Positions 990 to 47,536 of a stretch of DNA of 64,000 nt are shown here, piece after piece. The notes under the pieces were generated by a model. It made no database searches. It was not told the DNA's origin and saw only the letters and a program-made list of their open reading frames with translations. How positions within the stretch are numbered: the stretch's first letter is position 1; the number at the start of each line of letters is the position of its first letter. This DNA comes from Candidatus Poribacteria bacterium (GTDB lineage Bacteria > Abyssobacteria > SURF-5): NCBI GenBank assembly GCA_016215705.1, contig JACRIR010000209.1, positions 16,530 through 80,529 on the forward strand, in the 5' to 3' direction. Position numbers and translations under genes: made by a program.

Positions 990-1026
990 AATTCGGGGAC
1001 ACCATGCAGCATGGTGTCCCCGAATT
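990..1026. repeat. REP-like 37-bp perfect palindrome (family GGGGACAC-SATG-NCG-CATS-GTGTCCCC) between tRNA-Arg and tRNA-Lys
   Basis: aattcggggacaccatgc-a-gcatggtgtccccgaatt; related copies at 4628, 10728, 31622, 41716 and 47503. Confidence 0.85.
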
Positions 1027-1037
1027 AGCCCATCACC

Positions 1038-1112
1038 GGGCCGCTAGCTCAACTGGTAGAGCAAGTGACTCTTAATCACTAGGTTTGGGGTTCGAGTCCC
1101 CGGCGGCTCACC
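1038..1112 (+). tRNA. tRNA-Lys (anticodon CTT)
   Basis: Acceptor GGGCCGC/GCGGCTC with one G-U pair; anticodon stem-loop AGTGA-CTCTTAA-TCACT; T-loop GGGGTTCGAGTCCCC. Confidence 0.85.
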
Positions 1113-1148
1113 TGTTTGTAGATCGGTCGGAGGCTCCCGACCGTGCGG

Positions 1149-1234
1149 GGGCGGGTGGCGGAATCTGGCAGACGCGCATGACTTAGGATCATGTGCCATT
1201 CGGCGTGCGGGTTCAATTCCCGCCCCGCCCACCA
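1149..1234 (+). tRNA. tRNA-Leu (anticodon TAG), class II with long variable arm, CCA encoded
   Basis: Acceptor GGGCGGG/CCCGCCC; D-arm TGGCGGAATCTGGCAGACGC; anticodon stem-loop CATGA-CTTAGGA-TCATG; variable arm TGCCATTCGGCGTG; ends ACCA. Confidence 0.85.
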
Positions 1235-1437
1235 TCTCGCCTTGCCAAATCGTTGAAGCCATTAGGAGCGCGTGACCACGCCCGCGGCGTGGCTAATTGC
1301 GATAGAGACAGCGTGCCCATTACAGTCATTGCGAGCGGAGGGCCGCAGGCCCGAGCGAGGCAATCTCTCTTTTTTTGGCTTTCTCCCTTTCGCCTTGCTC
1401 CTTTCGCTTTACGCCTTTTCTTGGGAGGTAATCCATA

Positions 1438-2772
1438 TTGAAAGTCAACGTCGAAACTGTGTCCACTTACCAGAAAGTTCTCACCATAGAAATTCCATCT
1501 GAGACCGTTAATGCGGAGATAGAGAATATCTATTCCACGCTGTCCAAAACGGCCATTCATCCCGGCTTCCGCAAGGGAAAAGTTCCGCGCAAGATACTGG
1601 AAAAGAAATACAATAAATCCGTGCGGAACGAAGCGATTGAGAACACTGTGACCTCCTCGCTCAAGAGCGCACTCGCTGATCAGAAGATTGTCCCGCTGGT
1701 CGAGCCTTCAATTGACGAAGTGAAATTCGACGACGGCGCTCCGCTCTCCTTTAAAGTCACGATCGAGGTCGAGCCCACGATCGAACTCGCCGAGTACAAG
1801 GGTATCGAGTTGAAGCGCCCCAAAATTCCCATCACTGACGAAGGCGTTAACCGGGTGGTCGAAAGGCTTCGGCTATCCCACGCCACTTACATACCCGTGG
1901 AGAGGGCGGTCGAAAAGGGTGATTTCATCGTAATTGATTTCGCCGGGTCCGAAGGCGGCAAACCGGTGGAAGGCTTGAAGGCCGAGAATTTCCCCGTCGA
2001 GGTCGGCGCCGGAGTCTTTGCCGGAGGCTTCGAGGACCAGCTCATAGGCATGCAGAAGAATGAGGCAAGGGACGTCTCAGTCAAGTATCCGGAAGATTTT
2101 CGCACCAAGGAACTCGCCGGCAAGGACGTAACGTACCATGTGACCCTGAAGGACGTGAAACTCCGGAGGCTTCCCGACGTTGACGACGCCTTTGCCAAGG
2201 ACCTCGGCGAGTACAATACTCTCGAAGACCTCAAGAAAAACGTGCGTGAGGGGCTCGAGAAGGATATGCAGAGACGCATCGAGCATCTCATGCGCGAGCA
2301 AGGGATCTCCAAGGTCGTTTCCGAATCGAAACTCGAGATTCCGCCCAAGCTGAAAGCTAGGGTGGCGGCCTCCATATTCGAGGAACAAGTAAGGTCATTG
2401 GCCAGTCGCGGTGTGGACCGCGAGACTATAACCGTTCAGCGCGATAAGATAGCCGAACAGGCGGCTGTCGATGCCGAACGTCAGTTGAAAGCCAGGTTTG
2501 TAGCCGACGAGATAGCCCGGCGCGAAAACATCACCGTCACGACTGAGGAGTTGAATCAAAGACTCGAGGAAATGATTGCATCGTCGGAGGACCAGACTCA
2601 GGCTAGAACCTACTTCAACAGCGAGCGTGTTCGCGAAAGCTCCCGTGACCAGATGCTGGCCCAGAAGATATTGGATTTTGTGGTAAACAATGCTAGAATA
2701 ATAGAAGTGGAATCGCCGCAAAGCGGGTCAGAATTACAGCCCGAACCAGATGAACAAGAAGGAGAAAGCTGA
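1438..2772 (+). CDS. tig: Trigger factor (ribosome-associated chaperone / PPIase)
   Basis: 444 aa with TTG start; conserved tig-clpP-clpX synteny; GGGAGG Shine-Dalgarno at 1421-1426. Confidence 0.9.
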
Positions 2773-2774
2773 AC

Positions 2775-3362
2775 ATGCCTCTCATAATACCAAGGATTGT
2801 GGAACAAGATGCCCGCGGTGAGAAGGGATGGGACATCATTTCTCGCCTGCTGAAAGATCGCATCATATTTATCGGCGAAGCGATTGACGAGTGGGTTTCA
2901 CAGTTAATCATCGCTCAGCTTCTGTATCTCGAAGCGGAAGACCCCGAGAAGGATATATATCTGTACATCAACAGCCCGGGCGGTTACGTCACCGCCGGCC
3001 TTGCGATATATGACACCATGCAGTACATCCGCGCCAATATCTCGACTATTTGCCTTGGACAGGCCGCCAGCATGGGCGCGCTCCTCTTGTGCGCAGGCAC
3101 GAAAGGGAAACGTTTTGCCCTTCCATATGCTCGGATTCTAATCCACCAGCCGCTCGGCGGAGCCCGCGGCCAGGCTACCGATATTGAGATTCAGGCCAAG
3201 GAAATCCTGAAAGTGCGCGAGATAATAAACGAGATACTCGTAAAACACACGAGCCAGAAGGCGGAGAAAGTCCGCCAGGACACCGAGCGCGACTACTATA
3301 TGTCGGCCCAGGAAGCGAAGGATTACGGCATCGTGGACGAAGTGCTCATCAAGAACAAATAG
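2775..3362 (+). CDS. clpP: ATP-dependent Clp protease proteolytic subunit
   Basis: 195 aa; catalytic-Ser motif [11 protein letters not shown], also [18 protein letters not shown]. Confidence 0.95.
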
Positions 3363-3374
3363 GCGGGAAAACAC

Positions 3375-4625
3375 ATGGTATTTAACAGCGGAGAAGGAAG
3401 CGACGTGCCCACGTGCTCGTTCTGCGGAAAGAGGCAGGATGAGGTAAGGAAGCTGATCGCGGGGCCGATGGTGTATATCTGCGACGAATGCGTCGAGCTT
3501 TGCGGCGATATGCTCGAGGGCGAAACCCGCCCTGCAGCCGCTCCCGAGCGGCCAAAGGTTCCAAAACCGAAAGATATAAAGAAGATTCTCGACGAGTATG
3601 TGATTGGCCAGGAGCGCGCAAAGAAAATTCTCTCCGTTGCGGTTCATAACCATTACAAACGCATCGAGTTCGAGTTGGACGACGACGAAGTCGAGCTCCA
3701 AAAGAGCAACGTCCTGCTCGTCGGTCCGACGGGCTCCGGCAAGACCCTCCTCGCACAAACGCTGGCCCGCATCATCGATGTCCCGTTCGCCATCGCGGAC
3801 GCAACGACTCTCACCGAGGCCGGCTACGTCGGTGAAGATGTCGAGAACGTAATTCTGAAGCTTCTCCAGAACGCCGACTATGACCCTGAACAGGCGGAAG
3901 TCGGGATCGTCTATATCGATGAGATCGACAAGATAGCGCGCAAGAGCGAAAACGTTTCCATCACGCGTGACGTCTCCGGAGAAGGCGTTCAGCAGGCCCT
4001 CCTGAAAATATTGGAAGGCACGGTCGCCAACGTTCCCCCACAAGGCGGCCGCAAGCATCCTCAGCAGGAATACATCCAGGTGGATACAACAAACATCCTG
4101 TTCATTTGTGGCGGCGCCTTCGTTGGAATCGAGAAGATAATTGAATCGCGTCTGGGCAAGAACGTCATCGGCTTTGGCTCCGAGGCCAAACCGCGTGAGA
4201 AGAGGAAGGTTGGCGAGATTATCAAGCACATTCAACCGGAGGACCTGCTCAAGTATGGGATGATACCCGAGTTTGTCGGGCGTCTTCCCATCATCGCAAC
4301 TTTCGATGAGCTTTCCGAGGCCGACCTGATCCGTATCCTGCAAGAGCCGAAGAACGCGCTCGTGAAACAATACAAGAAGTTCTTCGACATCGAGAACGTC
4401 AAGCTGACTTTCACCGAAGAAGCCCTTGCTGAAATCTCGCACCAGGCTATAGCCCGAAAGAGCGGGGCCCGTGGCCTGCGCGCCATCATGGAGGAGGTCA
4501 TGCTCGACATCATGTATGAGACTCCCTCCAAGAGCGACGTGCGCGAATGCGTGATCACTGACGCTGTCGTGCGAAAGCAGGAAGAACCAAAGCTTGTGCA
4601 CGTGACCCGAAAGCGTTCTGCCTGA
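3375..4625 (+). CDS. clpX: ATP-dependent Clp protease ATP-binding subunit ClpX
   Basis: 416 aa; N-terminal Zn finger CSFCGK...CDEC; Walker A GPTGSGKT; follows clpP. Confidence 0.95.
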
Positions 4626-4627
4626 CC

Positions 4628-4674
4628 GAGCATATTCGGGGACACGATGCCGCATCGTGTCCCCGAATATGCTC
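4628..4674. repeat. REP-like 47-bp palindrome 3 bp after the clpX stop; probable bidirectional terminator
   Basis: gagcatattcggggacacgatg-ccg-catcgtgtccccgaatatgctc. Confidence 0.85.
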
Positions 4675-4699
4675 GCTCTTCCACAAGTACAAAGCAAGC

Positions 4700-4726
4700 G
4701 TCATTCTGAGCGAAGCGAAGAATCTC
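4700..4726. repeat. Solo copy of the 27-bp 'GTCATTCTGAGCGAAGCGAAGAATCTC' repeat core
   Basis: Exact core also present at 9226-9252, inverted at 9557-9583, 30223-30249 and 30280-30307, and degenerate at 56208-56235. Confidence 0.8.
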
Positions 4727-4751
4727 TCCTGCATATTCTTGAGGCTCACCG

Positions 4752-5330
4752 ATGAAAATAACGTCCGCCGAATACATCATCAGCGCTTTCGACAAGACCC
4801 AGTTCCCCCAGAATCGCCTCCCCGAGGTCGCCTTCGCCGGAAGGTCCAACGTCGGTAAGTCGTCGCTGCTGAACCGCCTGGCCGGCAAGGATATCGCAAG
4901 AATCAGCCGTACCCCCGGCAAGACCCGAGCGGTCAACTTCTTCCTTATGAATAACAAGTTCTATTTTGTTGACCTGCCCGGCTATGGGTTTGCCCGCGTC
5001 TCAAAGAGCATGCGCCGCGGCTGGCACGAGTTGATAGAGGGATACATCAGTGGCAGGCCGAATCTGGCCGCCGTCATCGTCCTTATTGACAGTCGCAGAG
5101 AAGAGATTCCCGACGCCGATCTGCAAATGATCGACTACCTGTGTCACATCCGGATTTCGAGTATTCCCGTATTTACGAAGATAGACAAGCTCAATCGGTC
5201 GGAACTAGCGCGCCTTAAGCAAGCTGCAATCCGAAAGCTTCCGGAGAGTTCCGAATCCATCTTCTTCTCCGCGGTCACATGCGAAGGTGTAGCGGATTTG
5301 TTGAACCGAATCGACGGATGTCTCCATTGA
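4752..5330 (+). CDS. engB: Ribosome-biogenesis GTPase EngB/YihA
   Basis: 192 aa; G1 motif [12 protein letters not shown] and DLPGYG. Confidence 0.9.
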
Positions 5331-5555
5331 CTCTCTGTTATTCAACATGGAGATTGCGGAAAATACCAATCCACCGATTTCGCAAATTCCTGCTGATTAT
5401 TTCAGACTTGTGTGCGCGCAGCAGGCTGCGTTCCATTCTACCGCAAAGCCTCGGTCGCGACCGCAAGTCTGGCGGCAGCATCGCAGGGCGTCGGAAGACA
5501 CTCTGATCATCGTCGCCGAAGCCGTGAGAAGGTTTGGTAAAGGGGGAGGGACCAC

Positions 5556-6887
5556 ATGATGAAGCCAGTCGTCTCGTTGGTTCGATACAAAGACGTGAGT
5601 TCAGTCAGCGAGGCAATTCGCCTTTGCGATGGATTTGACAAACTCAAATCGACTCATCGGGTCCTTCTCAAGCCTAATATCTGCACGGCAGGCGGAGGTT
5701 TTATTCCGCCTTATGGAACTGTCACGACCACCGCCGTTGTGGAGGGAACGGTTCGCGCCTTGAAGGACGCGGGCGTGAACGACATTTCCATAGGAGAAGG
5801 GACTGTCACCGACGAGCTTGGCACGAACACGACTAAAGGATACAAGTGGATTCAACTGGACCGCCTGGCAACACGCTACGGAGTCAAGTTGATCGATTTC
5901 AATGCGGGCCCGCACAAGAAAGTCATGGTCGAGGACGTGCCCATGAACATCGCCGAAGCGGCGCTGGACACTGATTTCTTTGTTAACCTGCCCGTCCTAA
6001 AGACTCATCAAGATGCGAGAGTCTCGCTCTCCGGCAAGAACCTCAAAGGCTGCATGAGCCTGGCATCGAAGCGGTTCTTCCATGGCGAACACGGTACGAT
6101 TCATTATCGCATCTCCCGCCTGATGGAGGCGGTTCCCCAGCACCTTGTCATAATCGACGGCATTTACGCGATGGAAAAAGGTCCCGACGCCACTATCGGT
6201 ACGGGGCGTCCAAAAGGTATCCTGGCGGCATCCACGGATTTCTTGGCTGCCGACGCCGTGGGTGTGCGCCTATTGGGCGCCGAACCGGCAGAAGCCCGGC
6301 ATCTAAGTCTCTATGCCGAGCGCCATGGCAGATTGGACGTGCTTCAGACTCCGGACACTATAGAGGTTCGCGGCGAGCGCATCGAGGATCATGCCGAATA
6401 CCTCGAATGGCGTTCCATAGCCGCTGAGGATATGCCGGCTTCCGGACACACCGGCTATGAGGTCCGCGCATTCACCGACGCCGCGTGCTCACAGTGTTTC
6501 GCCAATTTGTCCGGGTCCTCACTGCTTCTTGCCGCGCTCAGCCGCAACAAGGATTTCAACGACCTCGTGATCGTCTTCGGAAAAAGTTACAAGGAAGAGC
6601 GCAACTCGCCACGCACGCTCCTGTTCGGCAACTGCGCCATCAAAGCGAACAAAAGCCTTGATAAGGCCATGAAACTTGAAGGATGTCCCCCAAAGTTTTG
6701 GACTTCTTTCCTGTTCCTTACCGGACAAATGAAGAGTGTGCCGGGCAGAGCGGCGTTCTATGCCCGCACTGCGTTGTGCCTTGCCAAAGGCGCCGCTGGA
6801 GTCGGTCTGCTTCCCTTGCCGAGGTTCGATGTCTACAAGAACAAATCGGCATATGATATCAATCACTATAGGCTGTCAAGGAGTTGA
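5556..6887 (+). CDS. DUF362-domain protein, Cys-rich, possibly Fe-S; function unknown
   Basis: 443 aa; N-terminus VSLVRYKDV...VLLKPNICTAGG matches DUF362; several C-terminal cysteines. Confidence 0.6.
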   Translation: MMKPVVSLVRYKDVSSVSEAIRLCDGFDKLKSTHRVLLKPNICTAGGGFIPPYGTVTTTAVVEGTVRALKDAGVNDISIGEGTVTDELGTNTTKGYKWIQLDRLATRYGVKLIDFNAGPHKKVMVEDVPMNIAEAALDTDFFVNLPVLKTHQDARVSLSGKNLKGCMSLASKRFFHGEHGTIHYRISRLMEAVPQHLVIIDGIYAMEKGPDATIGTGRPKGILAASTDFLAADAVGVRLLGAEPAEARHLSLYAERHGRLDVLQTPDTIEVRGERIEDHAEYLEWRSIAAEDMPASGHTGYEVRAFTDAACSQCFANLSGSSLLLAALSRNKDFNDLVIVFGKSYKEERNSPRTLLFGNCAIKANKSLDKAMKLEGCPPKFWTSFLFLTGQMKSVPGRAAFYARTALCLAKGAAGVGLLPLPRFDVYKNKSAYDINHYRLSRS

Positions 6888-7071
6888 GAAAAGATCGGAA
6901 CACGAATGGCGCTGGGCACGATGTTGGTCGCTATGGCGACTCGTTTGCTGGAAGGCGTCCCAGGGATTTGGAGTTGCTTGCCGAAAAGGGTACTGAGGTT
7001 CAGCATTTTGGCGCACACGGAAGGCCGTCGGTCCGGGGAGACTCTCAAGAGAATGACACGATCCGGGATGC

Positions 7072-9171: not shown

Positions 9172-9252
9172 ATTCTGAGCCCTTTGGTGTCATTCTAGCC
9201 CTCGGCGTCACATTCTGAGCCCTTCGGTGTCATTCTGAGCGAAGCGAAGAAT
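9144..9252. repeat. Five tandem ~21-bp units GGTGTCA(C)ATTCTGAGCCCTY ending in the 27-bp core gtcattctgagcgaagcgaagaatctc
   Basis: Read directly from the sequence; the core supplies the last 8 codons and the stop of the GIY-YIG ORF. Confidence 0.85.
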
Positions 9253-9544
9253 CTCCTTTCTCACACCAGCCATTGCTTAGGTCTTCCCATCGGGGGTTGA
9301 CCGCTTCGATCAAGGCCATCTTCTTTGCTCGCAGCCAGCCTTTGATTTGTTTTTCACGCGCGATAGCTGCCTGAACGTCATCGGTTTCTTCGAAGAATAC
9401 GAGGCGGGTGATATTGTATTTCTTTGTAAAACCGGGCACGAGTCTTTCCTTGTGCTCGTTCACTCTTCTAACCAAATCACCAGTTACGCCCGTGTACAGA
9501 CACCGTGATTTGTTGGTCATTATGTAAACATAATAACGCTTCAT
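9230..9544 (-). CDS. Small GIY-YIG nuclease-superfamily protein
   Basis: 104 aa; MKRYYVYIMTNKSRCLYTGVTGDLVRRVNEHK is a GIY-YIG motif; C-terminal ...GDSSLRSE* is encoded by the repeat core. Confidence 0.8.
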   Translation of the reverse strand: MKRYYVYIMTNKSRCLYTGVTGDLVRRVNEHKERLVPGFTKKYNITRLVFFEETDDVQAAIAREKQIKGWLRAKKMALIEAVNPRWEDLSNGWCEKGDSSLRSE

Positions 9545-9556
9545 TGGAGTGCAAGA

Positions 9557-9645
9557 AGAGATTCTTCGCTTCGCTCAGAATGACACCAGAGGGTTCAGAA
9601 TGATATTTTGCGCTCAGAATGGCACATTACGCCCGCGATAACATA
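9557..9645. repeat. Inverted copy of the 27-bp core plus two degenerate 21-bp units immediately upstream of the GIY-YIG start
   Basis: gagattcttcgcttcgctcagaatgacacc-agagggttcagaatgata-ttgcgctcagaatggcac. Confidence 0.8.
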
Positions 9646-9698
9646 GATTTGTGTCTTGTTGCCAATCCAAAATCTAGAATCCAAAATCGAAAATAAGG

Positions 9699-10691: not shown

Positions 10692-10727
10692 CGGCTACTT
10701 CTCCGGGAATTCCTTGCTCCTCTTTTC

Positions 10728-10768
10728 GTTATTCGGGGACACGATGTCGCATCGTGTCCCCGAATAAC
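10728..10768. repeat. REP-like 41-bp palindrome between the ADH synthase stop and the DHQS-II start
   Basis: gttattcggggacacgatg-tcg-catcgtgtccccgaataac. Confidence 0.85.
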
Positions 10769-10770
10769 AG

Positions 10771-25650: not shown

Positions 25651-26022
25651 CTGTACTACTCATTTTCAAAATCACAAATTCTTGTCGTGATTTCTTGCAC
25701 GAACCTAACGCATATTAGTCACACGGGCGCAATGAATTGCGCCCCTACAGACACGAATCAAGATGCTCCGTAGGGGCGCGATTCATCGCGCCCGATTCGT
25801 GCTGTTTGGTTGCGGCTATGCTGCGCTGTACTACTCACGTTCGAAATCATGAATTCGTGTCGCAATTTCCTCTTCTTCTTTTTCGTAAAATCCGTGTCCA
25901 TCCGTGTGCATCTGTGGCTAAGATGCCTCTTTTTCTTCTTCTCCCCAAATCCGTGGAATCCGTGAAATCCGTGGTTCCCTTTGTTTCTTCTTTTGTTTGG
26001 TTGCGGCTCTGCCGCGCTATGT
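25651..26022. repeat. Repeat-rich 372-bp leader/promoter region with ~45-bp direct repeats (~80% identical), GGGCGC..GCGCCC hairpins and TCCGTG microrepeats
   Basis: 25651-25695 vs 25825-25872; tttggttgcggct at 25816 and 25999; hairpins at 25725-25745 and 25773-25792. Confidence 0.7.
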
Positions 26023-30222: not shown

Positions 30223-30307
30223 GTCATTCTGAGCAAAGCGAAGAATCTCGGGGGAAATCGTTCAATATGCTCCTCAAAGAGGATTCTTCGCTTCGCTCAG
30301 GATGGCG
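30223..30307. repeat. Inverted pair of the 27-bp repeat core forming a ~27-bp-stem hairpin with a 30-nt spacer
   Basis: gtcattctgagcaaagcgaagaatctc ... gaggattcttcgcttcgctcaggatggc; lies in the intergenic region before the UDP-sugar dehydrogenase gene. Confidence 0.85.
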
Positions 30308-31621: not shown

Positions 31622-31664
31622 GGAAAATTGGGGACACCATGCCGCATGGTGTCCCCGATTTTCC
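31622..31664. repeat. REP-like 43-bp palindrome 3 bp after the stop codon
   Basis: ggaaaattggggacaccatg-ccg-catggtgtccccgattttcc (one mismatch). Confidence 0.85.
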
Positions 31665-38443: not shown

Positions 38444-38504
38444 GCAGCGCCGGGAGCAGCCCGGGAATGCGCAAACTCGCAATGGCGATCATACGAGCGA
38501 TGTC

Positions 38505-39665
38505 ATGAACATCTGCATGTTGTTCCAGGAATATTATCCGTCTGACTTCCGCATTGAAAAGGAAGCGCGCACACTTATCGGAGCGGGCCATAAGGTATTT
38601 CTCATTTGCCAGCGCAGGAAATCCGAACCACCTTATGAGACGGTTGACGGCCTGCGCATATATCGAGTGGACGAATACCCCCTGCGAGGTGATCTGCTGT
38701 TCTTTCAAACTTTGTACTACAATCCGCGTCGGTTCCAAAGACTTTGCGAAATCATAGATTCTGAAAACATTCATGCGCTTCATGCGCACGACCTGCCGAC
38801 CGTCCTTACAGCGGCTCGAGCCGCGAAGAAATACGGTCTCCCGCTTGTTTTCGACATGCGTGAAAACTATCCGGTCGGTATCCTCTACTGGAAGAAGCGG
38901 CGACCCTGGCATCTTCTTGTGAGCAACGTCTGGCTCGCCAGGCTGGCCGAAAGAATCTGCATAAGACTGGCCGACCGCATTATTGTGGTAAGTGACGAAC
39001 AATGGGATCGCATGGTCTCCTTTGGAGCAGGCGATAAAACACGTATTATCATGAATACCGTTGATCTGTCATTCCTTCATGCCAACGTGTCCAAAACTAC
39101 GCCGAAACCGTTGCAGGGTTTTGTCGCCGTTTATACCGGCATGTTGAATCGTCACAGAGGACTTGATACTGTCATTTCGGCGATGCCCCTGGTTCGCAAA
39201 TCTGTTCCTTCGGCAAGATTGAAAGTGGTCGGTGACGGCAACACCAAACCGGAATTAGAAAGACTGACAGAGCAACTCCATCTCAACGACTATGTTGAAT
39301 TTCTCGGGTGGGCCGATATTCCAACAATGTACGGACACATACAAGAAAGCAGCGTCGGCGTCATACCACATCGAAAGAATCCGCATACGGATTCAACTAT
39401 CCCAAACAAATTGTTCGACTACATGGCCTTGGGAAAACCTGTCGTCGCGTCTGATCTCAAACCACTGCGGCGAATAATAACTGAAACTGATTGCGGTCGC
39501 ATATTCCAGCCGGACGATCCGAAATCATGTGCTCAAGCGCTTATCGAGTGCAGCGACTTATCGCGTGCAACGGCTTTTGGGAAAAACGGCCAGAGATTCG
39601 TGGCCACAAAGTACAATTGGCAGACGGCCGCAAACACTCTCCTGGACGTCTACAGATCTTTGTAA
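38505..39665 (+). CDS. GT4-family glycosyltransferase
   Basis: Start set at MNICMLFQEYYP; C-terminal region KLFDYMALGKPVVASD. Confidence 0.75.
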   Translation: MNICMLFQEYYPSDFRIEKEARTLIGAGHKVFLICQRRKSEPPYETVDGLRIYRVDEYPLRGDLLFFQTLYYNPRRFQRLCEIIDSENIHALHAHDLPTVLTAARAAKKYGLPLVFDMRENYPVGILYWKKRRPWHLLVSNVWLARLAERICIRLADRIIVVSDEQWDRMVSFGAGDKTRIIMNTVDLSFLHANVSKTTPKPLQGFVAVYTGMLNRHRGLDTVISAMPLVRKSVPSARLKVVGDGNTKPELERLTEQLHLNDYVEFLGWADIPTMYGHIQESSVGVIPHRKNPHTDSTIPNKLFDYMALGKPVVASDLKPLRRIITETDCGRIFQPDDPKSCAQALIECSDLSRATAFGKNGQRFVATKYNWQTAANTLLDVYRSL

Positions 39666-39676
39666 AGGCGCTTCAA

Positions 39677-41659
39677 TTGGCAAATAAACCCAAGAAAAGA
39701 AGAAGTTTTCCGCAACCGTCGAGCGTGCCGGCAAGCAGTAAACCCAAGTCCGGCCCGCGTCACAGCCTGCAAACTGCCATTGTGGCCCTAATCCTGCTTG
39801 CGAGCATATTCCCTTATCTCAACATCTTCAAGAACGATTTTGTCGGATACGATGATCAGAATCTGATTCAGAATAATAGGGAAATTCATAGCCTCACGCC
39901 GGAAAACGTCGCCCATATGTTTGTCCCGCGCACGCGAGGCAATTACCAACCGATCCGTACGCTCTCCTATGCGGTCGACTACGCTGTTTGGGGTGCGCGC
40001 CCCTTCGGATTTCACCTTGCAAATCTGCTTCTCCATGTCGTGACGGTCGTTGGAGTGTGGTTGCTGATTCGCCATTTGATGCCGGAACCCCTTCCCTTTC
40101 TTGCCGCATTGATTTTCGCGGTTCATCCCATTCATGTCGAGAGCGTGACGTGGATGTCGGCGCGCAAAGACGTGCTTTCGCTGGCTTTTTTCCTGCTTGC
40201 AATCCTCGCCTACGAGAAATCACAAGACAAACAAGGTTGCGAATACGCCACGCAACCGTTGCAAGATATGAAACGACCCCGCAGGGACATGGCTCGCCGT
40301 TCCCCGGCGAACGGAATCAACGATTCTCGGACCGCTTCCCTTCCCTTGTACCTGGCCTCGATTCTCTTTACCGGCCTGGCGCTCCTCTCGAAATTGACGG
40401 CGCTATCCCTGCCTCTTTGCATTTTGCTGCTCGAAATCTGCCGCGACGGCTGGCCGAAGGTCGGCGGATTCGCTCGAAAAGTCGTCCGCCTTGCGCCGCA
40501 CATTCTGCTGGCATGCGCCGTAGTCATATTGAACTTCATGCGCTTCGGAGTCGCATCATCACACGGCGATGCGCTCGCGGGTCTTGAGGGAACGTCCGGC
40601 GCATTAACGCACGACATAAGGCTGAGCATGCCGCTCGTCGTCTGCCGATATATCGGCCTCCTTATCTTGCCTTATGGTTTGGTCACTCACTATGATGTGG
40701 CTCAGATATCGCAAATCTCTGACTTGCGGGCTTTCATTCCCATTCTAGCGCTCGCCGCAATGATTGTGTTCGGCGCTCTTTGCTTCATCAGGGGCCGAAG
40801 AGCACAGGCCTTCGGTATTGGCTGGTTTGTCATTACCTTTCTGCCGACGTCCAACATCTTTCCAACGGCTTCAATGATGAACGACCGCTACATGCACATT
40901 CCGTCCGTTGGGTTCGCAACGCTGCTTGCAATGGCCTTGTCGTACCCGGCGATAGGGATGTCTAAGAATCGGATATCGACGATCAGGATGATCACGATCA
41001 TGCCCGCCGTCATCATCGTATTGCTGTTCTCCGTTCTCACGATTCGCCGTAATGCCGACTGGCGTGACACAACGGCTCTATTCACCCGTACTCTTCGCAT
41101 GAACCCCAGGAGCGTCCAGGCCCGTCTCACTCTCGGGGCAATGAGCGCCAAGTCTGGCGATTATGACTCCGCCATCAAGATGTATCGTGATGCGCTTGAA
41201 ATAGAGCCGGGTGATTATCGCGTTCTCTATAACCTCAGCATATCGTATCAGAAGGAGGGTCTGAATCTTTTGGCCGTCAAGGCCCTCGAGGAATCGCGTG
41301 AGTCAAACCCGGATTTTCTGCCAACGCGGTTCAACCTCGCTGTGGCCTATCATGAGCAAAGGCGCTATGAACAAGCCATCGCGGAGCACAAGGAAGTTCT
41401 TCGGCTTTCCCCCGTAAACGCCGCCTCCCACGGCGACCTCGGTCGCATCTACTCTGAACTCGGCGACATGCAAACAGCCCTTAAGGAACTGAACCTGGCC
41501 TTGAGCATAAAACCAGACCTGATACCCGCTCTCATCGACAGGGCGGATTTGCTTGTTCGGCAAGGTCGGCGTGAAGAGGCTGAGATGGACTTTCAGCGAC
41601 TTGAAGCTCTGGGGGTCAAAACCGGGGATTTGCGGCGTTCAATGCCAATGTCAAATTAA
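39677..41659 (+). CDS. TMTC/PMT-like multi-TM membrane domain fused to C-terminal TPR repeats (candidate GT-C O-glycosyltransferase)
   Basis: N-terminal motif ...FAVHPIHVESVTWMSARKDVL (DUF1736-like), ~9 TM segments, then TPR repeats; start inferred at TTG 39677 or GTG 39725. Confidence 0.6.
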   Translation: MANKPKKRRSFPQPSSVPASSKPKSGPRHSLQTAIVALILLASIFPYLNIFKNDFVGYDDQNLIQNNREIHSLTPENVAHMFVPRTRGNYQPIRTLSYAVDYAVWGARPFGFHLANLLLHVVTVVGVWLLIRHLMPEPLPFLAALIFAVHPIHVESVTWMSARKDVLSLAFFLLAILAYEKSQDKQGCEYATQPLQDMKRPRRDMARRSPANGINDSRTASLPLYLASILFTGLALLSKLTALSLPLCILLLEICRDGWPKVGGFARKVVRLAPHILLACAVVILNFMRFGVASSHGDALAGLEGTSGALTHDIRLSMPLVVCRYIGLLILPYGLVTHYDVAQISQISDLRAFIPILALAAMIVFGALCFIRGRRAQAFGIGWFVITFLPTSNIFPTASMMNDRYMHIPSVGFATLLAMALSYPAIGMSKNRISTIRMITIMPAVIIVLLFSVLTIRRNADWRDTTALFTRTLRMNPRSVQARLTLGAMSAKSGDYDSAIKMYRDALEIEPGDYRVLYNLSISYQKEGLNLLAVKALEESRESNPDFLPTRFNLAVAYHEQRRYEQAIAEHKEVLRLSPVNAASHGDLGRIYSELGDMQTALKELNLALSIKPDLIPALIDRADLLVRQGRREEAEMDFQRLEALGVKTGDLRRSMPMSN

Positions 41660-41715
41660 GAAAATCGGAAAAATGATGCGACATTAGGAAAGGTAGAGAA
41701 CGCGATGCGACACTG

Positions 41716-41760
41716 AGAAAAATCGGGGACACGATGCCGCATCGTGTCCCCGATTTTTCT
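41716..41760. repeat. REP-like 45-bp palindrome ~55 bp after the TPR protein stop
   Basis: agaaaaatcggggacacgatg-ccg-catcgtgtccccgatttttct. Confidence 0.85.
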
Positions 41761-41912
41761 TAATCCCGTACCGTCTTGCGGCTTTTCTCCATGCCGTACC
41801 GTCCTCCAAATCCTCTCGGTACGGCATCTCGTCCCCGATTCTCCACTTCAACACGATGTCCTCCGTAGGGGCACGGCGCGCCGTGCCCCTACAGCAATTA
41901 TCGGACAGATTC

Positions 41913-42845
41913 TCAGTTCCTTCCTGACAACGGCCGGCGACTCAACTCCTCCGGCGTCGAGTATATTGTTATCCCCTCCCGCATAAGCCTGACAAGGTGA
42001 TCGAAGAATCCGCGCGCCTGGGTTTGCCACGAGGATGCCGATCCGATCTTGCCGGTCGTCAGCAGGCCCGCCGCTCTGAATTCCTGCCAGAAGTAAGCGC
42101 GCAAGTCCTCGCGTTCCTTCTGGTCTATTCGTTGCTTGACGTAGTGTGGGTCTAACGGCCTGACGCGTACCACCACCAGATTTCCGCTCCAGTCGCGGCA
42201 TCTCAAGTCGTACGTGGCCTGCACTCTGACCGGCAACGGGAACTCATCTTTCATCGTATCTTCAAGAGCATGATAGTAGGCCACCGGCGCCAATGATACC
42301 CCGAGACCCAGAACCTTGCCGTTCAGTTTCAGTATCCGGTCCCAAGGAGAGTCAGGGCCGAAAGTGGAAGGGGCAAGATGGTGAGATTCCGTCACGTATT
42401 TTGCATGATGGCCTACGGCCGAAACAGAGTGTGTAGGATGAATGCTCCGTTGTATATTGGGAAACTTAAGAAAGGCTGACGGTATGGCGCCAAGATATGT
42501 CCCGTGACGGCGCGGGTCAAACATGTATTTGTCGGCTGCGAGACAAGTGTTGTAGCAGCTATGCTCCAACATGTGGTAGGTTGGAATGACGAGCGTCCCG
42601 CTCGGTGTCACGGTCTCGAAGAGCGCCTCCAGAACCGTTTGCGCTCCACCATCAACGTATCCGAGACTTTTCAGCGACGAGTGCACCAGGACAACGTTGT
42701 CCTTCACGATTCCCAATGCGTGCAAATCATCGATGAGCCGTCGTTTGGAGATAGCCGGCTGAGAATTCTTGATCTGACGGCGTCGGATGGGCTGTATAAG
42801 CCTATCCTTTGCTTCCTTGAGGCGCACCCGCAGTGCCCAGAGCAT
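41913..42845 (-). CDS. AAC(3)-family (Antibiotic_NAT) N-acetyltransferase-like protein
   Basis: 310 aa; VVLVHSSLKSLGYVDGGAQTVLEAL, the signature N-terminal region of aminoglycoside 3-N-acetyltransferases. Confidence 0.7.
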   Translation of the reverse strand: MLWALRVRLKEAKDRLIQPIRRRQIKNSQPAISKRRLIDDLHALGIVKDNVVLVHSSLKSLGYVDGGAQTVLEALFETVTPSGTLVIPTYHMLEHSCYNTCLAADKYMFDPRRHGTYLGAIPSAFLKFPNIQRSIHPTHSVSAVGHHAKYVTESHHLAPSTFGPDSPWDRILKLNGKVLGLGVSLAPVAYYHALEDTMKDEFPLPVRVQATYDLRCRDWSGNLVVVRVRPLDPHYVKQRIDQKEREDLRAYFWQEFRAAGLLTTGKIGSASSWQTQARGFFDHLVRLMREGITIYSTPEELSRRPLSGRN

Positions 42846-42849
42846 TTCC

Positions 42850-44085
42850 TCAAACCCCTTCTCTTTCCCTTACCGCTTTCTCCAACATGTTTGCGTCTAC
42901 AAAGAACTTGCAGGCCCAATTGGGAAACTCATACTTCAAATAACCGCCGTCCACAGGAAACGACCCCTTTATTGCGCCCCGCTTCTCGGACGAGCCTTCA
43001 CATATCATGCTTCGCCGGACATAACGGGTCAAGGCGTATGCGGCATCCCGGTATCGTTCATCTCCCACAAAATCGAATAGCATCAGAAAGCAGATGGCGA
43101 TTTGTACGCTTCCCGTCAGGCAAGCCCAGTTCGCCGCGCTTCTCCAATCAGGATAAAGCCTGCCTGGCAGGAAGCCATCCTCTCGCACAGCGCTGAGAAC
43201 ACCATCGGCCGTTTTGCGGGATGACTCTAACAGGACAGCGTCCCGGTTGAACCTGTAAAGCTCAAGAATACCCCTCAGCGCGTAACCCAACGTATGTGTC
43301 AACGGTCTTGTGGGATCGCCGGTGCAACACCTTTCAAACCAGCCATTGTCTCTTTGCAACTTCAGCGCCCACTTTACGTTTGCAGTCGCGGAATCAGCGT
43401 AAGGTTTGTCCTGCTCTAAACGCGCTGCCTCCAATATTGCCCATGCGACGTGCGTGTCGTACGCTTTCTCACCCCTAAAGCGAACCCCGGGCTGGTTCCT
43501 GCGCCAGGCCCCATCTTTATCTTGTGTCTTGACCAGCCAATCGGCCGCTCGAATCATTGGCTCGCGATATATGTCTCCGAATTCGCGGACACCGCTCGCC
43601 AGACCGAGCAGGATTTGGCCGGTGTCAAACGTCGCAGGGAGAGGCGGCGTCGCCCCGATGAGTCCTGCTTGGAAGCACCCGTCAGGAAATTGAATTGAGA
43701 CGAGCCAGTCAAGCATGCGTTGAGCCCGCTGGCGCGCCCACGTGTTGCCACTGAGTCCGGCGTACGCCAACATGGTCGGCACGATGTAGCCGGTTGTCTC
43801 AGGATACGATGCCGCCCAGCCTTCGATGAGGCTGTAACGCGCAGAAACCCCGCCGTCATGCGAAGTGGAACAGTCTTGAGCAAACCTGAGCCAATTCGCT
43901 CCGAGTTCGATCGCCTTTTCAATGCCGGGATCTTCTGAAGGAAGCCCGAGTCGGTCGCGGCGGGCTTCAAGCCTTGCATTCTCAGGCAATGTATATTTGA
44001 TCAGTTTTGCGGCAATCCAACGGAGAGATTCGCTGGTCTTTCTGAGCATAAGCGCAGCCTGAAATCGGCCCCCCCAACTGCACAA
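42850..44085 (-). CDS. Prenyltransferase/squalene-cyclase-like alpha/alpha-toroid repeat protein; function unknown
   Basis: 411 aa; repeated QW-like motifs VSIQFPDGCF, KTQDKDGAWR, KLQRDNGWFE. Confidence 0.5.
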   Translation of the reverse strand: MCSWGGRFQAALMLRKTSESLRWIAAKLIKYTLPENARLEARRDRLGLPSEDPGIEKAIELGANWLRFAQDCSTSHDGGVSARYSLIEGWAASYPETTGYIVPTMLAYAGLSGNTWARQRAQRMLDWLVSIQFPDGCFQAGLIGATPPLPATFDTGQILLGLASGVREFGDIYREPMIRAADWLVKTQDKDGAWRRNQPGVRFRGEKAYDTHVAWAILEAARLEQDKPYADSATANVKWALKLQRDNGWFERCCTGDPTRPLTHTLGYALRGILELYRFNRDAVLLESSRKTADGVLSAVREDGFLPGRLYPDWRSAANWACLTGSVQIAICFLMLFDFVGDERYRDAAYALTRYVRRSMICEGSSEKRGAIKGSFPVDGGYLKYEFPNWACKFFVDANMLEKAVREREGV

Positions 44086-44320
44086 TCGAGCAAATCAATC
44101 ACGAAACATTTGCAGTATACACGCGCAAGAAAAGCCATGTCAATGCCGGATTAAGGGATAAGTGCGCCAAATAAGAGGTGCTGAGTCTGCCCCGAGTTTG
44201 ACAGGCCAACATGGTTCGACTATAATTTCAAAAACAGGCGTTTGTGTTTGCCGTAGTTGCAACCAGCCGCTATCACGCAACAAAAACCTCGGATTTCAAG
44301 AACTTGCACAAACTATTCTG

Positions 44321-45709
44321 ATGCGTAAAATCCCCCGTTTCAAGATATTCCTTCTTCTCGCGCTGTCTGCAACCCTCCTGCAATGTGCTGACAGGCCACA
44401 AGTTTCAGTCAAGAACGAGATGAATGTTCTCCTTATTACAATCGATACTCTTCGCGCCGACCATCTCGGCTGCTACGGCTACACTCAGCACGTTTCGCCC
44501 TCTATTGACGCCTTGGCCCATAGGGGAGTTCTATTCAGCAACTGCATAAGCCAATGCCCCATGACCCCTACGTCGCACGCTTCCATACTCACTGGTCAGG
44601 ATCCCTACCGTCACGGCGTGCGTGAGTTCCTCAGCAAAAGACTCAAGCGAGATACTCCCACTCTGGCGACCCTTCTGAAGAATGCCGGCTATCAAACCGC
44701 TGCCTTCGTCAGCGCATACTCTCTTGAGAAACAAAAATATGGGCTGGACAACGGGTTCGATGTTTATGACCAGAGTTTCTGCGAGGAGCAAGACGCCGAA
44801 CACTTCGACCAGGAAAAACAAAGGGTTAATTCTCAGCGCCAACAGAACCCGGTGCAGAGAAGGGCCGACCTGACCGCGTCTCTTGCCGTGGACTGGTTGC
44901 GCCGGATTGACAAGCGCCCGTTCTTCCTGTGGGTCCACTACTTTGATCCTCATGAGACTGTCCTCGTGCCTCCAATCATTCCCGGTCTCTTCGAGTATTC
45001 GGTCAAGGGCCCACTGACTCCTGTTCATCTGCAAATGTATGATGTCGAGATAAGGTTCGTGGACTTGATACTTAATACTTTGACCAGCGAGCTCTTCAAA
45101 ATGGGATTGGGACAAAACACCTTGATTGTTCTGACTTCCGACCACGGGCAGGGGCTTGACAACCACAACTACGAGTACCATACTCGCGCTCTCTACCAGG
45201 AACAAATCCATATTCCCTTGATCCTTGCCGGCAAACCGATACCCGTCGGCGTGAAAGTGGATGCTCTCGCCAGGTCGACGGACATCCTTCCCACCGTGCT
45301 TGATATCCTCGGCTATCCGGATGATAAGATTCCCCTCAACTTTGACGGCAGGAGCCTGCGAACTTTCTGGGAAAACACAGGTCGCGAAAAACCCGCTGAA
45401 GTCACGGCATACAGCGAAACTTTGTATTCAAAACTCAGAAGCGGCGGCTCGCCTATGTATTCGATGATTGACGGCGACATGAAGCTGATCTATCACGCCG
45501 AAGCGCAATATAAGAACGAAATGTATGACCTCGCCCGCGATCCGCTCGAGATGAACAACATATTCACTCAGCAGCCGAAGCATGCGAAAAAACTGATCGG
45601 AGAAATCAATTCTCTGCTGAAAGGAACCACGATTTCCACTCAACGGGCAAAAGCCGGGCAGGACAAGGATTGGGAGAACAAGCTGAAATCTCTCGGATAT
45701 ATGAACTAG
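44321..45709 (+). CDS. Sulfatase-like alkaline-phosphatase-superfamily hydrolase/transferase, secreted; lacks the FGly C-x-P-x-R motif
   Basis: Start at MRKIPRFKIFLLLALSATLLQC signal peptide; metal-binding N-terminus LLITIDTLRADHLGCYG; CPMTPT in place of CxPxR. Confidence 0.75.
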   Translation: MRKIPRFKIFLLLALSATLLQCADRPQVSVKNEMNVLLITIDTLRADHLGCYGYTQHVSPSIDALAHRGVLFSNCISQCPMTPTSHASILTGQDPYRHGVREFLSKRLKRDTPTLATLLKNAGYQTAAFVSAYSLEKQKYGLDNGFDVYDQSFCEEQDAEHFDQEKQRVNSQRQQNPVQRRADLTASLAVDWLRRIDKRPFFLWVHYFDPHETVLVPPIIPGLFEYSVKGPLTPVHLQMYDVEIRFVDLILNTLTSELFKMGLGQNTLIVLTSDHGQGLDNHNYEYHTRALYQEQIHIPLILAGKPIPVGVKVDALARSTDILPTVLDILGYPDDKIPLNFDGRSLRTFWENTGREKPAEVTAYSETLYSKLRSGGSPMYSMIDGDMKLIYHAEAQYKNEMYDLARDPLEMNNIFTQQPKHAKKLIGEINSLLKGTTISTQRAKAGQDKDWENKLKSLGYMN

Positions 45710-47469
45710 TGTAAGGAGTATAAGTTCTCTAGCGCCTCTTTCAGCGCTTCCGGCCGACGCGGCGATACTTCGCCGCCCTCATAAACGAGAAACGGGGAAC
45801 CAACATATCTCTCCCAATCCCTCTGATATCGACTGTCCTTCCCGACTATCCCAAGTTGCTTCACCCTCCGCCAGCGCTCGGCGCAAACCTGATCCTGCAA
45901 CGAGCGCTCCGGAAAGTAAATATGCCCGCCCAGTGCGCCAATCTTGAAGTATGCTGATTTCCCATAGGACAGCGCCCCATAGGGTATCATCTCGACGGTT
46001 ACGATTCGGACGGCGTCGAGCGACTCGTCGCCATAGAACAGGCGCAGAGCGTACTTGAGATTGTCAAACCTGAAAACGAGCGCACCCTCAACGGAATCGG
46101 GAACATTAAGGAAGAAAAACGTCGTTCCGGATCCCGGGGCCGGGTAGATTTGCGTCGTCTGCTCAACGACGTCACCCGCAATGTCGGAAGCATGCTTCCA
46201 TATGGTCTGTCTTTGTTTGAGATAATAGCAGCTTGTGCCGGCAAAAGCGATCGCTAGGACGCATCCGAGAACAATTGAATATCTCCTCGATCTCGGGGCC
46301 GCCGACTCAGAAAGCCCGAACAAAGCGACCGAAATCAATATCGCCGCCGCACTCGATCCTAGAACCATGTGTCTCTCCGATGGCACCAGTCCCAGGCAGA
46401 GGACCGGCGCGGCGCTCACCATAATCCACCATAAAAGGAACGTTGCCCTGAATCTCTTCAGGATCAACGGAACGACTACAACTGCCAGGATGGTGACTCC
46501 TCCGACTACCGGAAAAACCACTCCATTTCCTGCAAGCCTGTCGAACCAGTTTAGCGCTAAAGCCCAGTCGATTGGGGACAGGGTCATAATGAGTGAGTAC
46601 CACAATCCGACTATCAGAATTCTCCAGTCGAAGGCGGTCAGCGCGGGCGGCAAGTGTACCTGCCGCATTACCACGTGTCGGACGGCCACAAAAAGGACGC
46701 CAAGCGCAATAAATGGCAGACAGCTTGTCGCGCTTCTCATTATTGCGTTTAGCAAGCGGGAATACACGTCCGCTGTCGTCGGACCAGGACTCTCGCTCTG
46801 GCAGGGATGACCTCGATGTTCTCGAATGACTTGTGTATTCCCTCCGGCTATTGCCCCATCTCTGACAGGGTTGCTCGCTCCCAGGAGCATGTCATAGATA
46901 AAGACAATTATCGGGAGAGAAATAGCTGATTCCTTTGTCAGCAACGCGCATGCGAATAAGACCAGTGAGCACGCATATGAGGGCGTAGAACGATCCTGCC
47001 GCCATCGAATGAAACATATGAGCGATGCCAACGTGAGAATATTTTCAACAGCCCCATTAATGCTCGATATCCAGAAAATAGCTTCGGCGTGCACGCTCGA
47101 GGTCAGGAATATGACTGCCGAGACGAGGCCCAACAGCCATCTGCCCGTGATACGCAATCCCAAAACGTAAACCTCAAAACACAGAACAGCAAAACAAATG
47201 AGGCTCATCATGTGGTAGCCACCCGACCACAAATGAAACACTCTTCCTAATAACTCGAAGAAGACTTTGATTCCTGGCCGATAGTAGAGGCCCCACGACG
47301 GCCTCAGAAATTCCGAAAGCCCTTCCCGCCAGCCGACACTTTCTTGATGGAGCGCATGATAGATCACGTTGTAATCATCGGAATTGAACCCATGCTTTAT
47401 CGTCCCACCTAAAAGAATGAAGACTAAAGTGAAAAGCAGGAAAAGGAAGACGGCTTTTTTCAGTCCCAC
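45706..47469 (-). CDS. TMTC/PMT-like multi-TM membrane protein (candidate GT-C glycosyltransferase)
   Basis: 587 aa; ...SSVHAEAIFWISSINGAVENIL parallels the HP(I/V)HxE(S/A)V region of the 39677 protein; >10 TM segments. Confidence 0.55.
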   Translation of the reverse strand: MGLKKAVFLFLLFTLVFILLGGTIKHGFNSDDYNVIYHALHQESVGWREGLSEFLRPSWGLYYRPGIKVFFELLGRVFHLWSGGYHMMSLICFAVLCFEVYVLGLRITGRWLLGLVSAVIFLTSSVHAEAIFWISSINGAVENILTLASLICFIRWRQDRSTPSYACSLVLFACALLTKESAISLPIIVFIYDMLLGASNPVRDGAIAGGNTQVIREHRGHPCQSESPGPTTADVYSRLLNAIMRSATSCLPFIALGVLFVAVRHVVMRQVHLPPALTAFDWRILIVGLWYSLIMTLSPIDWALALNWFDRLAGNGVVFPVVGGVTILAVVVVPLILKRFRATFLLWWIMVSAAPVLCLGLVPSERHMVLGSSAAAILISVALFGLSESAAPRSRRYSIVLGCVLAIAFAGTSCYYLKQRQTIWKHASDIAGDVVEQTTQIYPAPGSGTTFFFLNVPDSVEGALVFRFDNLKYALRLFYGDESLDAVRIVTVEMIPYGALSYGKSAYFKIGALGGHIYFPERSLQDQVCAERWRRVKQLGIVGKDSRYQRDWERYVGSPFLVYEGGEVSPRRPEALKEALENLYSLH

Positions 47470-47502
47470 GCGCGCCCTCTCAGAGAACTGCTGTTTGTTC
47501 CT

Positions 47503-47536
47503 TAATTGGGGACACTATGCCGCATCATGTCCCAAA
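47503..47536. repeat. Degenerate REP-like copy
   Basis: ttaattggggacactatg-ccg-catcatgtcccaaaacaa; arms only partly complementary. Confidence 0.6.

Follow-up and report, generated by a model that had tools for sequence, protein, structure and literature searches.

What a short, perfectly symmetric DNA sequence is doing when it recurs between otherwise ordinary genes is the question raised by a 64,000-nucleotide stretch of contig JACRIR010000209.1 (positions 16,530 to 80,529; hereafter the window), from a genome deposited as Candidatus Poribacteria bacterium. The window carries six related palindromes, which an initial annotation described as a lineage-specific family of terminators or of repeats resembling repetitive extragenic palindromic (REP) sequences. 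From our computational analyses, we conclude that they are probably copies of a non-autonomous, hairpin-forming mobile DNA repeat that is REP-like in its behaviour.

Six palindromes share a 27-bp core

The sequence GGGGACAC-N11-GTGTCCCC occurs exactly five times in the window, at 995–1021, 4638–4664, 10735–10761, 31630–31656 and 41725–41751, and a sixth, degenerate copy with its core at 47508–47534 has three mismatches to the consensus. The pattern used to search the window, GGGGACAC-N(8–30)-GTGTCCCC, gave no matches in 100 shuffles of the same sequence. The 8-mer GGGGACAC is present 11 times where 1.6 occurrences are expected, and all 11 lie within the six elements. A profile hidden Markov model built from 95 family members recovered the same six copies and no others at E<1, which confirms the six-copy family of the initial annotation.

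The conserved unit is a 27-bp palindrome consisting of two 13-bp half-sites, GGGGACAC-S-W-TGC, around one unpaired centre base. It is extended by A/T-rich arms of about 8 bp, which differ among the copies yet mirror each other. The full extents of the five good copies are thereby 990–1026, 4627–4675, 10728–10768, 31622–31664 and 41716–41760 (37–49 bp), and these are the longest short-range inverted repeats of the window. Either DNA strand, or either transcript, is predicted to fold into a 17–23-bp hairpin; RNA folding gave −30 to −45 kcal/mol for the five good copies (z-scores −7 to −11) and only −15 to −19 kcal/mol for the degenerate copy 6.

All six copies are intergenic according to our gene calls, as had been annotated; these calls are open reading frames (ORFs) ranked by a codon-usage-trained model, and Pfam was run on the flanking genes. 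No transposase was found among the genes neighbouring the six window copies. At gathering score, Rfam 15 detected only four tRNAs in the window and no family for the palindromes, and relaxed thresholds added generic hairpin matches to eukaryotic miRNA precursors, far under gathering. Six copies in 64 kb, with none expected by chance, are in line with a mobile element and with a short extragenic high-copy hairpin repeat such as a REP.

The core is identical in three phyla

We scanned one genome per GTDB species (596 Gb) with a core pattern of 23 specified bases, for which we estimate about 0.02 chance matches. The exact core was found at at least 77 genome loci, and it is also present in at least 120 metagenome contigs with a G+C content of 44–69%, so that the family is abundant beyond the window. 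The genome matches listed form three groups of metagenome-assembled genomes (MAGs): the CAYVDS, CAYVQZ and CAZEBC MAGs with 53–57% G+C, five Elusimicrobia MAGs with 60–68% G+C, and six Syntrophales/Syntrophaceae MAGs. The ClpX of CAYVDS is 94% and that of CAYVQZ 86% identical to that of the window, and this group therefore belongs to the window's own lineage. The 27-bp core is letter-for-letter identical in the Abyssobacteria-like, Elusimicrobia and Syntrophales MAGs, and it is the flanking dress that differs by lineage. The Abyssobacteria-like group pairs eight further positions (offsets 14–21), pairing in the Elusimicrobia copies ends exactly at the core edge, and Syntrophales-type copies have short AT-core-AT arms. 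The lineage-specific part is the dressing around the core and not the core itself. The proposals that the family is lineage-specific and could serve as a taxonomic marker are contradicted by a core that is the same in three phyla and in metagenome contigs with such different G+C content.

The ClpX encoded in the window (3375–4625) is identical to MBI5118338.1, which NCBI labels 'Candidatus Poribacteria bacterium', and the next named relatives, with 85–87% identity, are from Candidatus Abyssobacteria, a class placed by NCBI in the Hydrogenedentota. Because ClpX is nearest to that of Abyssobacteria, the Poribacteria label may be a misassignment.

A phage origin of the core was rejected, since only 1 of 2.9 million viral contigs carries it, in a spacer between tail genes. 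This contig (IMGVR_UViG_3300046652_000019) is a tail-gene fragment with PHROGs tail completion, minor and major tail genes, and its core lies at 4652–4678. Further sites at 1362–1388 and 1816–1862 comprise the related palindrome GGGGACAGATTTGAAATCTGTCCCC and a long variant whose apical hairpin is CCCGCC/GGCGGG. The contig might serve horizontal spread as a vehicle, or might only be the prophage of a host that carries the family. A literature search with the sequence returned only unrelated primer matches, and we found no paper on such repeats in Elusimicrobia or Abyssobacteria.

Variation is mirrored and probably constrained on the DNA

Sequence variation was analysed in 95 copies from the window's lineage. 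At position 4 from the centre of the core, 83 copies have an A-T and 11 a T-A pair, and at position 5 there are 46 G-C and 44 C-G pairs; at both positions 95–99% of the pairs are Watson-Crick. The arm offsets 14–21 show two to four pair types each, with 73–95% Watson-Crick pairs. Independent variation of the columns would give 29–81% across these core and arm positions, compared with the 73–99% seen, and past offset 23 pairing is at chance level. One arm class, CTTAATTC, comprises 15 copies, some 30 arm sequences were each seen a single time yet are mirrored as well, and core variants combine freely with arm classes. Full copies are adjoined by half copies and small tandem duplications, and hybrid long variants carry a second apical hairpin (GGTCCCGCC...GGCGGGAT), all of which is debris typical of repeat families. 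An origin of the arms from target-site duplication or from a palindromic target was rejected, because the mirroring far exceeds any possible duplication and no duplication is present at the hcp insertion described below.

A function in mRNA would predict mostly G·U-compatible mismatches on the sense strand. The transition mismatches are wobble-compatible on the sense strand in 17 cases and on the antisense strand in 18, so that there is no bias towards the sense strand. We thus rejected selection at the RNA level and infer that the constraint acts on DNA and not on mRNA.

Through its unpaired centre base, each copy has an orientation, on which neighbouring copies agree in 28 cases and disagree in 8 (permutation p=0.0005); these 36 neighbour pairs were taken over all multi-copy loci (e.g. 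the window, L007, L018, L044 and L068). All five window copies with a C or G centre have the C on the + strand. This agreement points to a strand-specific process acting over kilobases, and may reflect replication-strand polarity.

Copies are gained, lost and replaced at orthologous spacers

Spacers of the window were compared with three syntenic loci, L079 (CAYVDS), L081 (CAYVQZ) and L080 (a SURF Abyssobacteria contig). In the tRNA-Arg/tRNA-Lys spacer, a copy is present in the window only and absent from all three relatives. In the clpX/engB spacer, the copies of the window and L079 belong to different subfamilies. They differ at 6 of 10 positions of the outer arm and at two of the core, all eight changes being mirrored, and also in the centre base. 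As the two ClpX proteins are 94% identical, this difference far exceeds what shared descent predicts. L080 and L081 have ordinary terminators there, a GC stem followed by a T-run. Between the aldolase and 3-dehydroquinate synthase genes, the window copy corresponds to a degenerate copy in L079 that runs into an assembly gap, and the genes of L081 overlap without any spacer. The N run of this scaffold gap (L079 7880–7900, CAYVDS010000046.1) starts inside the degenerate palindrome, and the palindromes appear to break short-read assemblies. The spacer between the genes for UDP-glucose dehydrogenase and a GT2 glycosyltransferase has one copy in the window, two in L079 and none in L081; L079 has an ortholog with one mirrored arm change and a second, chimeric copy. 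In none of these spacers do the more distant relatives carry a copy. Gain, loss and replacement of copies thus take place within a short evolutionary time.

In the more distant relatives, the palindrome's place at the clpX 3' end and in the tRNA leader is taken by an unrelated GC hairpin and its T-rich tail. Either the element lands preferentially in existing hairpins and replaces them, or a hairpin is required there and the palindrome supplies one. In the tRNA leader of L080 and L081, the hairpin with its T-rich tail at the place of copy 1 reads TCGGGCG-GATA-CGCCCGA TTCTTTCT.

The bare core is inserted in frame in Elusimicrobia genes

The core is free of stop codons in all six frames. In Elusimicrobia, it is found bare within strongly coding ORFs, usually in the frame encoding GDTM(R/P/Q)HGVP; of 25 copies that a coding-like frame spans, 13 are in this frame. 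The hybrid cluster protein (Hcp) of MAG WOVA01 (L060) aligns end to end with solved Hcp structures and has eight extra residues, GDTMRHGV, which are absent in all 13 closest orthologs. These orthologs are 81–96% identical in the alignment, and the closest, from JAVVFK01 (L082), is 94% identical by BLASTP. At the nucleotide level, JAVVFK01 reads GAGGC followed directly by GCCCGAG, and WOVA01 reads GAGGC-CGGGGACACCATGCGGCATGGTGT-CCCCAGT, a net insertion of 24 bp without duplication and with at most a 3–4-nt CCC overlap. In HypF, the GDTM(R/P/Q)HGVP peptide lies in the linker from the acylphosphatase domain to the zinc-finger domain. In-frame palindromic insertions in unrelated genes are therefore found in Elusimicrobia loci and not in the window. 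We saw no well-supported coding insertion in the window's own lineage, where 5 of 74 copies lie inside ORF calls that are apparently spurious or start-extended and where many of the A/T-rich arms contain stop codons.

An asymmetric extension, GCSGCATYRGCG-core-GTWCC, which encodes AASA-GDTMxHGVP-VP, is common to many Elusimicrobia copies, and its left part GCSGCATYRGCG repeats the centre of the core itself (GCSGCATC). This arrangement was seen in L164 (377 and 568), L130 (9407 and 9598), L014, L019, L053, L029 and L062, sometimes twice about 190 bp apart in Pro/Ala-rich ORFs. The core also carries GGGGA....ATG, a Shine-Dalgarno-like sequence plus start codon, on both strands. With no stop codon in any frame, this causes ORF finders to start or extend spurious ORFs in the core, giving peptides such as MRHHVPELRE and RGHHAAWCPR (L018 254, L064 2814, L049 7425 and similar).

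Location at gene ends and the possibility of terminators

Of the 74 copies in the related genomes, 69 are intergenic and 5 fall within ORF calls, against a coding share of 81%. Convergent spacers are enriched (18 copies, 10.8 expected) and divergent spacers depleted (5 copies, 16.1 expected; p=0.0017). Of 46 copies in co-directional spacers, 31 are closer to the stop upstream of them, and 28 of 70 copies are within 20 nt of a stop. The positional enrichment at 3' ends that the initial annotation led us to look for is therefore present, and its statement that most of the palindromes lie near stop codons holds for the window, where copies 2, 3 and 4 begin 1–2 nt past a stop, copy 5 about 56 nt and copy 6 about 55 nt. 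This bias does not separate a REP from a terminator, because REPs show the same distribution.

The same annotation also called the palindromes a terminator family. They would then be intrinsic, largely bidirectional terminators, or hairpins that stabilise mRNA 3' ends, kept by selection in the manner of the pneumococcal SPRITE repeat or of paired uptake sequences that also serve as terminators. This reading, which we consider unlikely, accounts for the very stable predicted RNA hairpins, for the start of copies 2, 3 and 4 directly past stops and of so many family copies within 20 nt of one, and for the contrast between convergent and divergent spacers. It also fits copy 5, with its A-run, stem and T-run on both strands, and the clpX 3' end of L080 and L081, where the GC stem and T-run lie exactly at the palindrome's place in the window and L079. 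However, a T-run after the GC stem is clear in copy 5 only and weak in copy 4, and most arm classes (the common TTAATTC and TTATTC, and CATATTC) have none. A terminator consensus scan flags copy 3 alone, on the strand antisense to the local genes. Copy 1 starts about 18 nt downstream of a promoter-like sequence, TTGACT-17-TATCGT (944–972), which is conserved in L079 and L080; this places it inside the leader of tRNA-Lys and tRNA-Leu, between promoter and tRNA-Lys. Copy 3 separates two genes of the shikimate pathway, within a two-gene unit whose genes overlap in L081. Judging from this gene order, termination would be harmful at both places, and despite the 3'-end bias the palindromes are not confined to the ends of transcription units. 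The equal numbers of sense and antisense wobble-compatible mismatches and the presence of the same core in frame within Elusimicrobia genes also argue against terminators, and selection for termination leaves an identical 27-bp stem in three phyla unexplained. The designation as a terminator family is therefore not supported. Like SPRITE-type repeated terminators, the palindromes are dispersed repeats with hairpins at gene ends and in copy 5 a terminator-like look; they differ in that most copies have no T-run, some lie where termination is predicted to be harmful, and the sequence is common to distant phyla.

Relation to REP sequences and RAYT transposases

REPINs are described as short, extragenic, high-copy hairpin repeats with compensatory variation (PMC3116915, PMC3337134), and the palindromes could be a canonical REP/REPIN family copied by a single-copy REP-associated tyrosine transposase (RAYT; TnpA-REP, HUH/Y1) encoded elsewhere in each genome. 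Their extragenic position, G+C-rich hairpins, high copy number and mirrored variation agree with this description, and the strand polarity of the copies fits a mechanism that acts on single-stranded DNA. Against this, the E. coli RAYT requires a 5' GTAG tetranucleotide and the mismatched bulge of an imperfect hairpin (PMC3479197). In the family described here, the 4 nt before the core are ATTC, AATC, ATTG, AATT or TTAT, and the sequence beyond the arms is variable, so that no conserved, guide-like 5' GTAG is present at the foot of the hairpin; the stems are perfect and have no bulge. The earlier suggestion that the palindromes are targets of a RAYT is therefore unsupported.

A search for the transposase gene itself, covering 1.31 Mb around about 270 copies, gave no tblastn match to an IS200 TnpA (a query confirmed as Y1_Tnp), although a single-sequence query is weak for distant RAYTs. 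A regular expression for the RAYT C-terminal motif, Y..NP[VL][RK], had no matches in the same sequence. RAYT genes are described as always flanked by their REPs (PMC3479197), but if a genome had about 200 copies and a RAYT flanked by two of them, only about three matches would be expected, which makes this a weak negative, and a distant RAYT gene is compatible with searches that covered the surroundings of copies. Clustering of the flanking ORFs yielded only large housekeeping families and orthologous neighbours; two clusters of 'unknown' ORFs were rejected as genes because they are antisense shadow ORFs, and the genes between closely spaced copies are ordinary. Furthermore, REPIN-RAYT systems are described, in the RAREFAN preprint, as mostly vertically inherited, whereas the core is found in three phyla.

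The window also contains two GTAG-headed repeats of REP type, which are distinct from the GGGGACAC family and fit the described RAYT substrate much better. An inverted doublet at 25725–25793 consists of two units, GTAGGGGCGC(A/G)ATTCAT(T/C)GCGCCC, which face each other about 21 bp apart in a REPIN-like manner, and a perfect palindrome, GTAGGGGCACGGCGCCGTGCCCCTAC, lies at 41865–41892, about 100 bp from copy 5. CAYVDS loci match the 25.7-kb region with an identity of about 80%. Taken with the missing GTAG head and bulge, we regard copying by a RAYT as distinctly unlikely.

The palindromes share with the REPs and REPINs of Enterobacteria and Pseudomonas the form of short G+C-rich extragenic hairpins, with many copies per genome at gene 3' ends and in convergent spacers, as well as mirrored, structure-preserving variation and the gain and loss of copies at orthologous spacers. 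They differ from them as one-piece perfect palindromes without a 5' GTAG, in place of imperfect stems or two spaced REPs, as a family with no RAYT found nearby, in the identity of the core across phyla where REPs are species- or genus-specific, and in the in-frame copies inside genes of one phylum. The term REP-like, as used in the initial annotation, is thus a fair description of a dispersed, extragenic, hairpin-forming and 3'-end-enriched repeat, and membership of the REP-RAYT system is not established.

Binding sites and uptake sequences

The perfect two-fold symmetry of the core, with 13-bp half-sites around a single centre base, is of a size typical of dimer or recombinase core sites. The core might accordingly be the binding site of a dimeric DNA-binding protein (nucleoid-associated, partition-like or a recombinase), with dispersal being secondary and conservation of the protein explaining the identity across phyla. 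Symmetry that is kept on both strands without an RNA-strand bias, and an invariant core in lineage-dependent surroundings, are consistent with such a role. It is nevertheless very improbable, as the copies are depleted in divergent, promoter-containing spacers, occur in the hundreds with presence/absence turnover, and include a bare copy inserted in hcp. No recurrent neighbouring gene was found around the roughly 270 copies, and half-sites never stand alone, save in debris adjoining full copies.

That the half-sites are DNA uptake sequences in inverted pairs, as in Neisseria, is hardly credible, and the lack of solitary half-sites already largely refutes it. Uptake sequences are over-represented, frequently form terminator-like hairpins as pairs, and are also intragenic in tolerated frames, which recalls GDTMxHGVP in Elusimicrobia. 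However, none of the 11 half-site 8-mers of the window lies outside the six palindromes, most isolated halves elsewhere are debris no more than 120 bp from a full copy, hcp has a clean 24-bp insertion in place of gradual convergence, and with about one copy per 10 kb the density is far lower than that of known uptake sequences.

A probable mobile hairpin repeat

We therefore return to a mobile, hairpin-forming repeat as the probable explanation. A trans-acting enzyme would recognise the hairpin or the symmetric duplex and copy the element, and such recognition would account for the propagation of symmetric copies only. The element, or its enzyme, would have moved between phyla. An inserted copy would be mostly neutral. 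The copies survive nearly only in spacers, mainly just past stops and between convergent genes. Some copies, for example copy 5, may in addition have been co-opted as bidirectional terminators or as hairpins stabilising 3' ends, and copy 2 sits where relatives have an ordinary terminator.

A more specific and speculative version, possible but not favoured by us, is that the 27-bp core is a minimal, self-contained hairpin module, copied by undescribed non-RAYT machinery, which crosses phyla and lands in spacers and, as a bare unit of 24–27 bp, in frame in essential genes. Candidates for such machinery would be a hairpin-specific nuclease or integrase acting on single-stranded DNA, or a templated fold-back that mirrors one arm onto the other.

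Several points weigh against a mobile repeat. No recurrent gene or transposase was found next to the roughly 270 copies in 1.31 Mb, which makes the mobilising activity a postulate. Neither a target-site duplication nor a target consensus was seen at family copies, and hcp is the only filled-versus-empty site resolved to the nucleotide. The spacer comparisons rest on diverged sequences, and all family data come from MAGs and metagenome contigs, with no complete genome among them. The agreement in orientation showed no association with the GC skew of 8-kb pieces and a weak, non-significant trend with gene strand. Finally, selection for a function at transcript ends would also fit the preference for stop codons and convergent spacers, and the presence of the palindrome in place of ordinary terminators at the clpX 3' end.

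Among known mobile repeats, the Rickettsia palindromic elements likewise occur in spacers and in frame in unrelated housekeeping genes, where they encode a conserved peptide in tolerated loops; the corresponding peptide here is GDTM(R/P/Q)HGVP in Hcp and HypF. Those elements are about 100–150 bp long and confined to Rickettsia (PMC10969869), whereas the core described here is 27 bp (net 24 bp in hcp) and spans phyla. Miniature inverted-repeat transposable elements resemble the palindromes as small, non-autonomous inverted-repeat elements with subfamilies and insertion polymorphism. In the palindromes, however, a single base separates the arms, the flanks are inverted and not direct repeats, neither a target-site duplication nor a parent insertion sequence with matching ends was found, and a length of 27–49 bp is several-fold below that of typical elements of this kind.

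Individual copies and other repeats of the window

Copy 1 (990–1026) is a 37-bp perfect palindrome of the C-ATG variant with centre A and arms AATTC/GAATT, and its predicted RNA hairpin has −30.3 kcal/mol (z −7.5). It lies between tRNA-Arg (806–881) and tRNA-Lys (1038–1112), within the tRNA-Lys leader, and is thus the copy annotated between two tRNA genes. Copy 2 (4627–4675) is a 49-bp perfect palindrome of the G-ATG variant with centre C and arms CGAGCATATTC, folds at −45.4 kcal/mol, and starts 1 nt past the clpX stop codon, followed by an EngB-like GTPase gene. Copy 3 (10728–10768), a 41-bp palindrome of the G-ATG variant, starts 2 nt past the stop of a DeoC-family aldolase gene and is followed by a type II 3-dehydroquinate synthase (DHQS-II) gene, both genes being on the − strand. 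Copy 4 (31622–31664) is a 43-bp palindrome of the C-ATG variant with one T·G pair and arms GGAAAATT/GATTTTCC, located 2 nt past the stop of the UDP-glucose dehydrogenase gene and before the GT2 glycosyltransferase gene.

Copy 5 (41716–41760) is a 45-bp perfect palindrome with arms AGAAAAATC/GATTTTTCT. Its neighbours are a TPR protein gene and, convergent with it, an acetyltransferase gene. It starts about 56 nt past a stop, and no other window copy clearly combines A-run, GC stem and T-run on both strands; 39–43 bp of its arms plus core are identical in the CAYVDS loci L012, L040 and L059. The degenerate copy 6 (47500–47537; nhmmer E=3.9e-10) has a weak hairpin and is located between the start of an unannotated gene (45706–47469, 587 aa) and the stop of a methyltransferase gene (47592–48326), both on the − strand. 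It is about 55 nt downstream of the latter stop and upstream of the former start.

Another dispersed repeat, the third kind in the window, is GTCATTCTGAGCGAAGCGAAGAAT, with seven matches where 0.2 are expected, including 4700–4723, 9229–9252, 9561–9584 (−) and 30223–30246 and a variant at 1325–1348. One of its copies lies about 25 nt downstream of palindrome copy 2 and another just past tRNA-Leu. Short direct repeats of the type (A/G)ATCCGTG follow one another in the spacer at 25870–25990 (aaatccgtgtccatccgtgtgcatctgtgg ... aaatccgtggaatccgtgaaatccgtgg), and similar motifs are present in L081 upstream of tig.

Implications

The element has practical consequences for genome analysis. It appears to break assemblies, as in the one relative whose scaffold has a gap at a copy, spurious ORF starts arise from its GGGGA...ATG motif, and the palindrome is unsuitable as a taxon marker. 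Repeats of the REP type are usually taken to be lineage-specific and vertically inherited, and hence to be taxonomic markers tied to one domesticated transposase. The 27-bp palindrome contrasts with this, being identical in Hydrogenedentota/Abyssobacteria-like bacteria, Elusimicrobiota and Syntrophales, each of which adds arms of its own. Its copies turn over between close relatives, and it can become part of proteins as a peptide of nine residues. The unusual parts are the identical core in three phyla and the in-frame insertions. If the mobilising activity is found, the family would be a tractable case for the horizontal spread of tiny hairpin repeats and the upkeep of their symmetry, and if the core is indeed a module copied by non-RAYT machinery, it would be among the smallest mobile DNA units known in bacteria.

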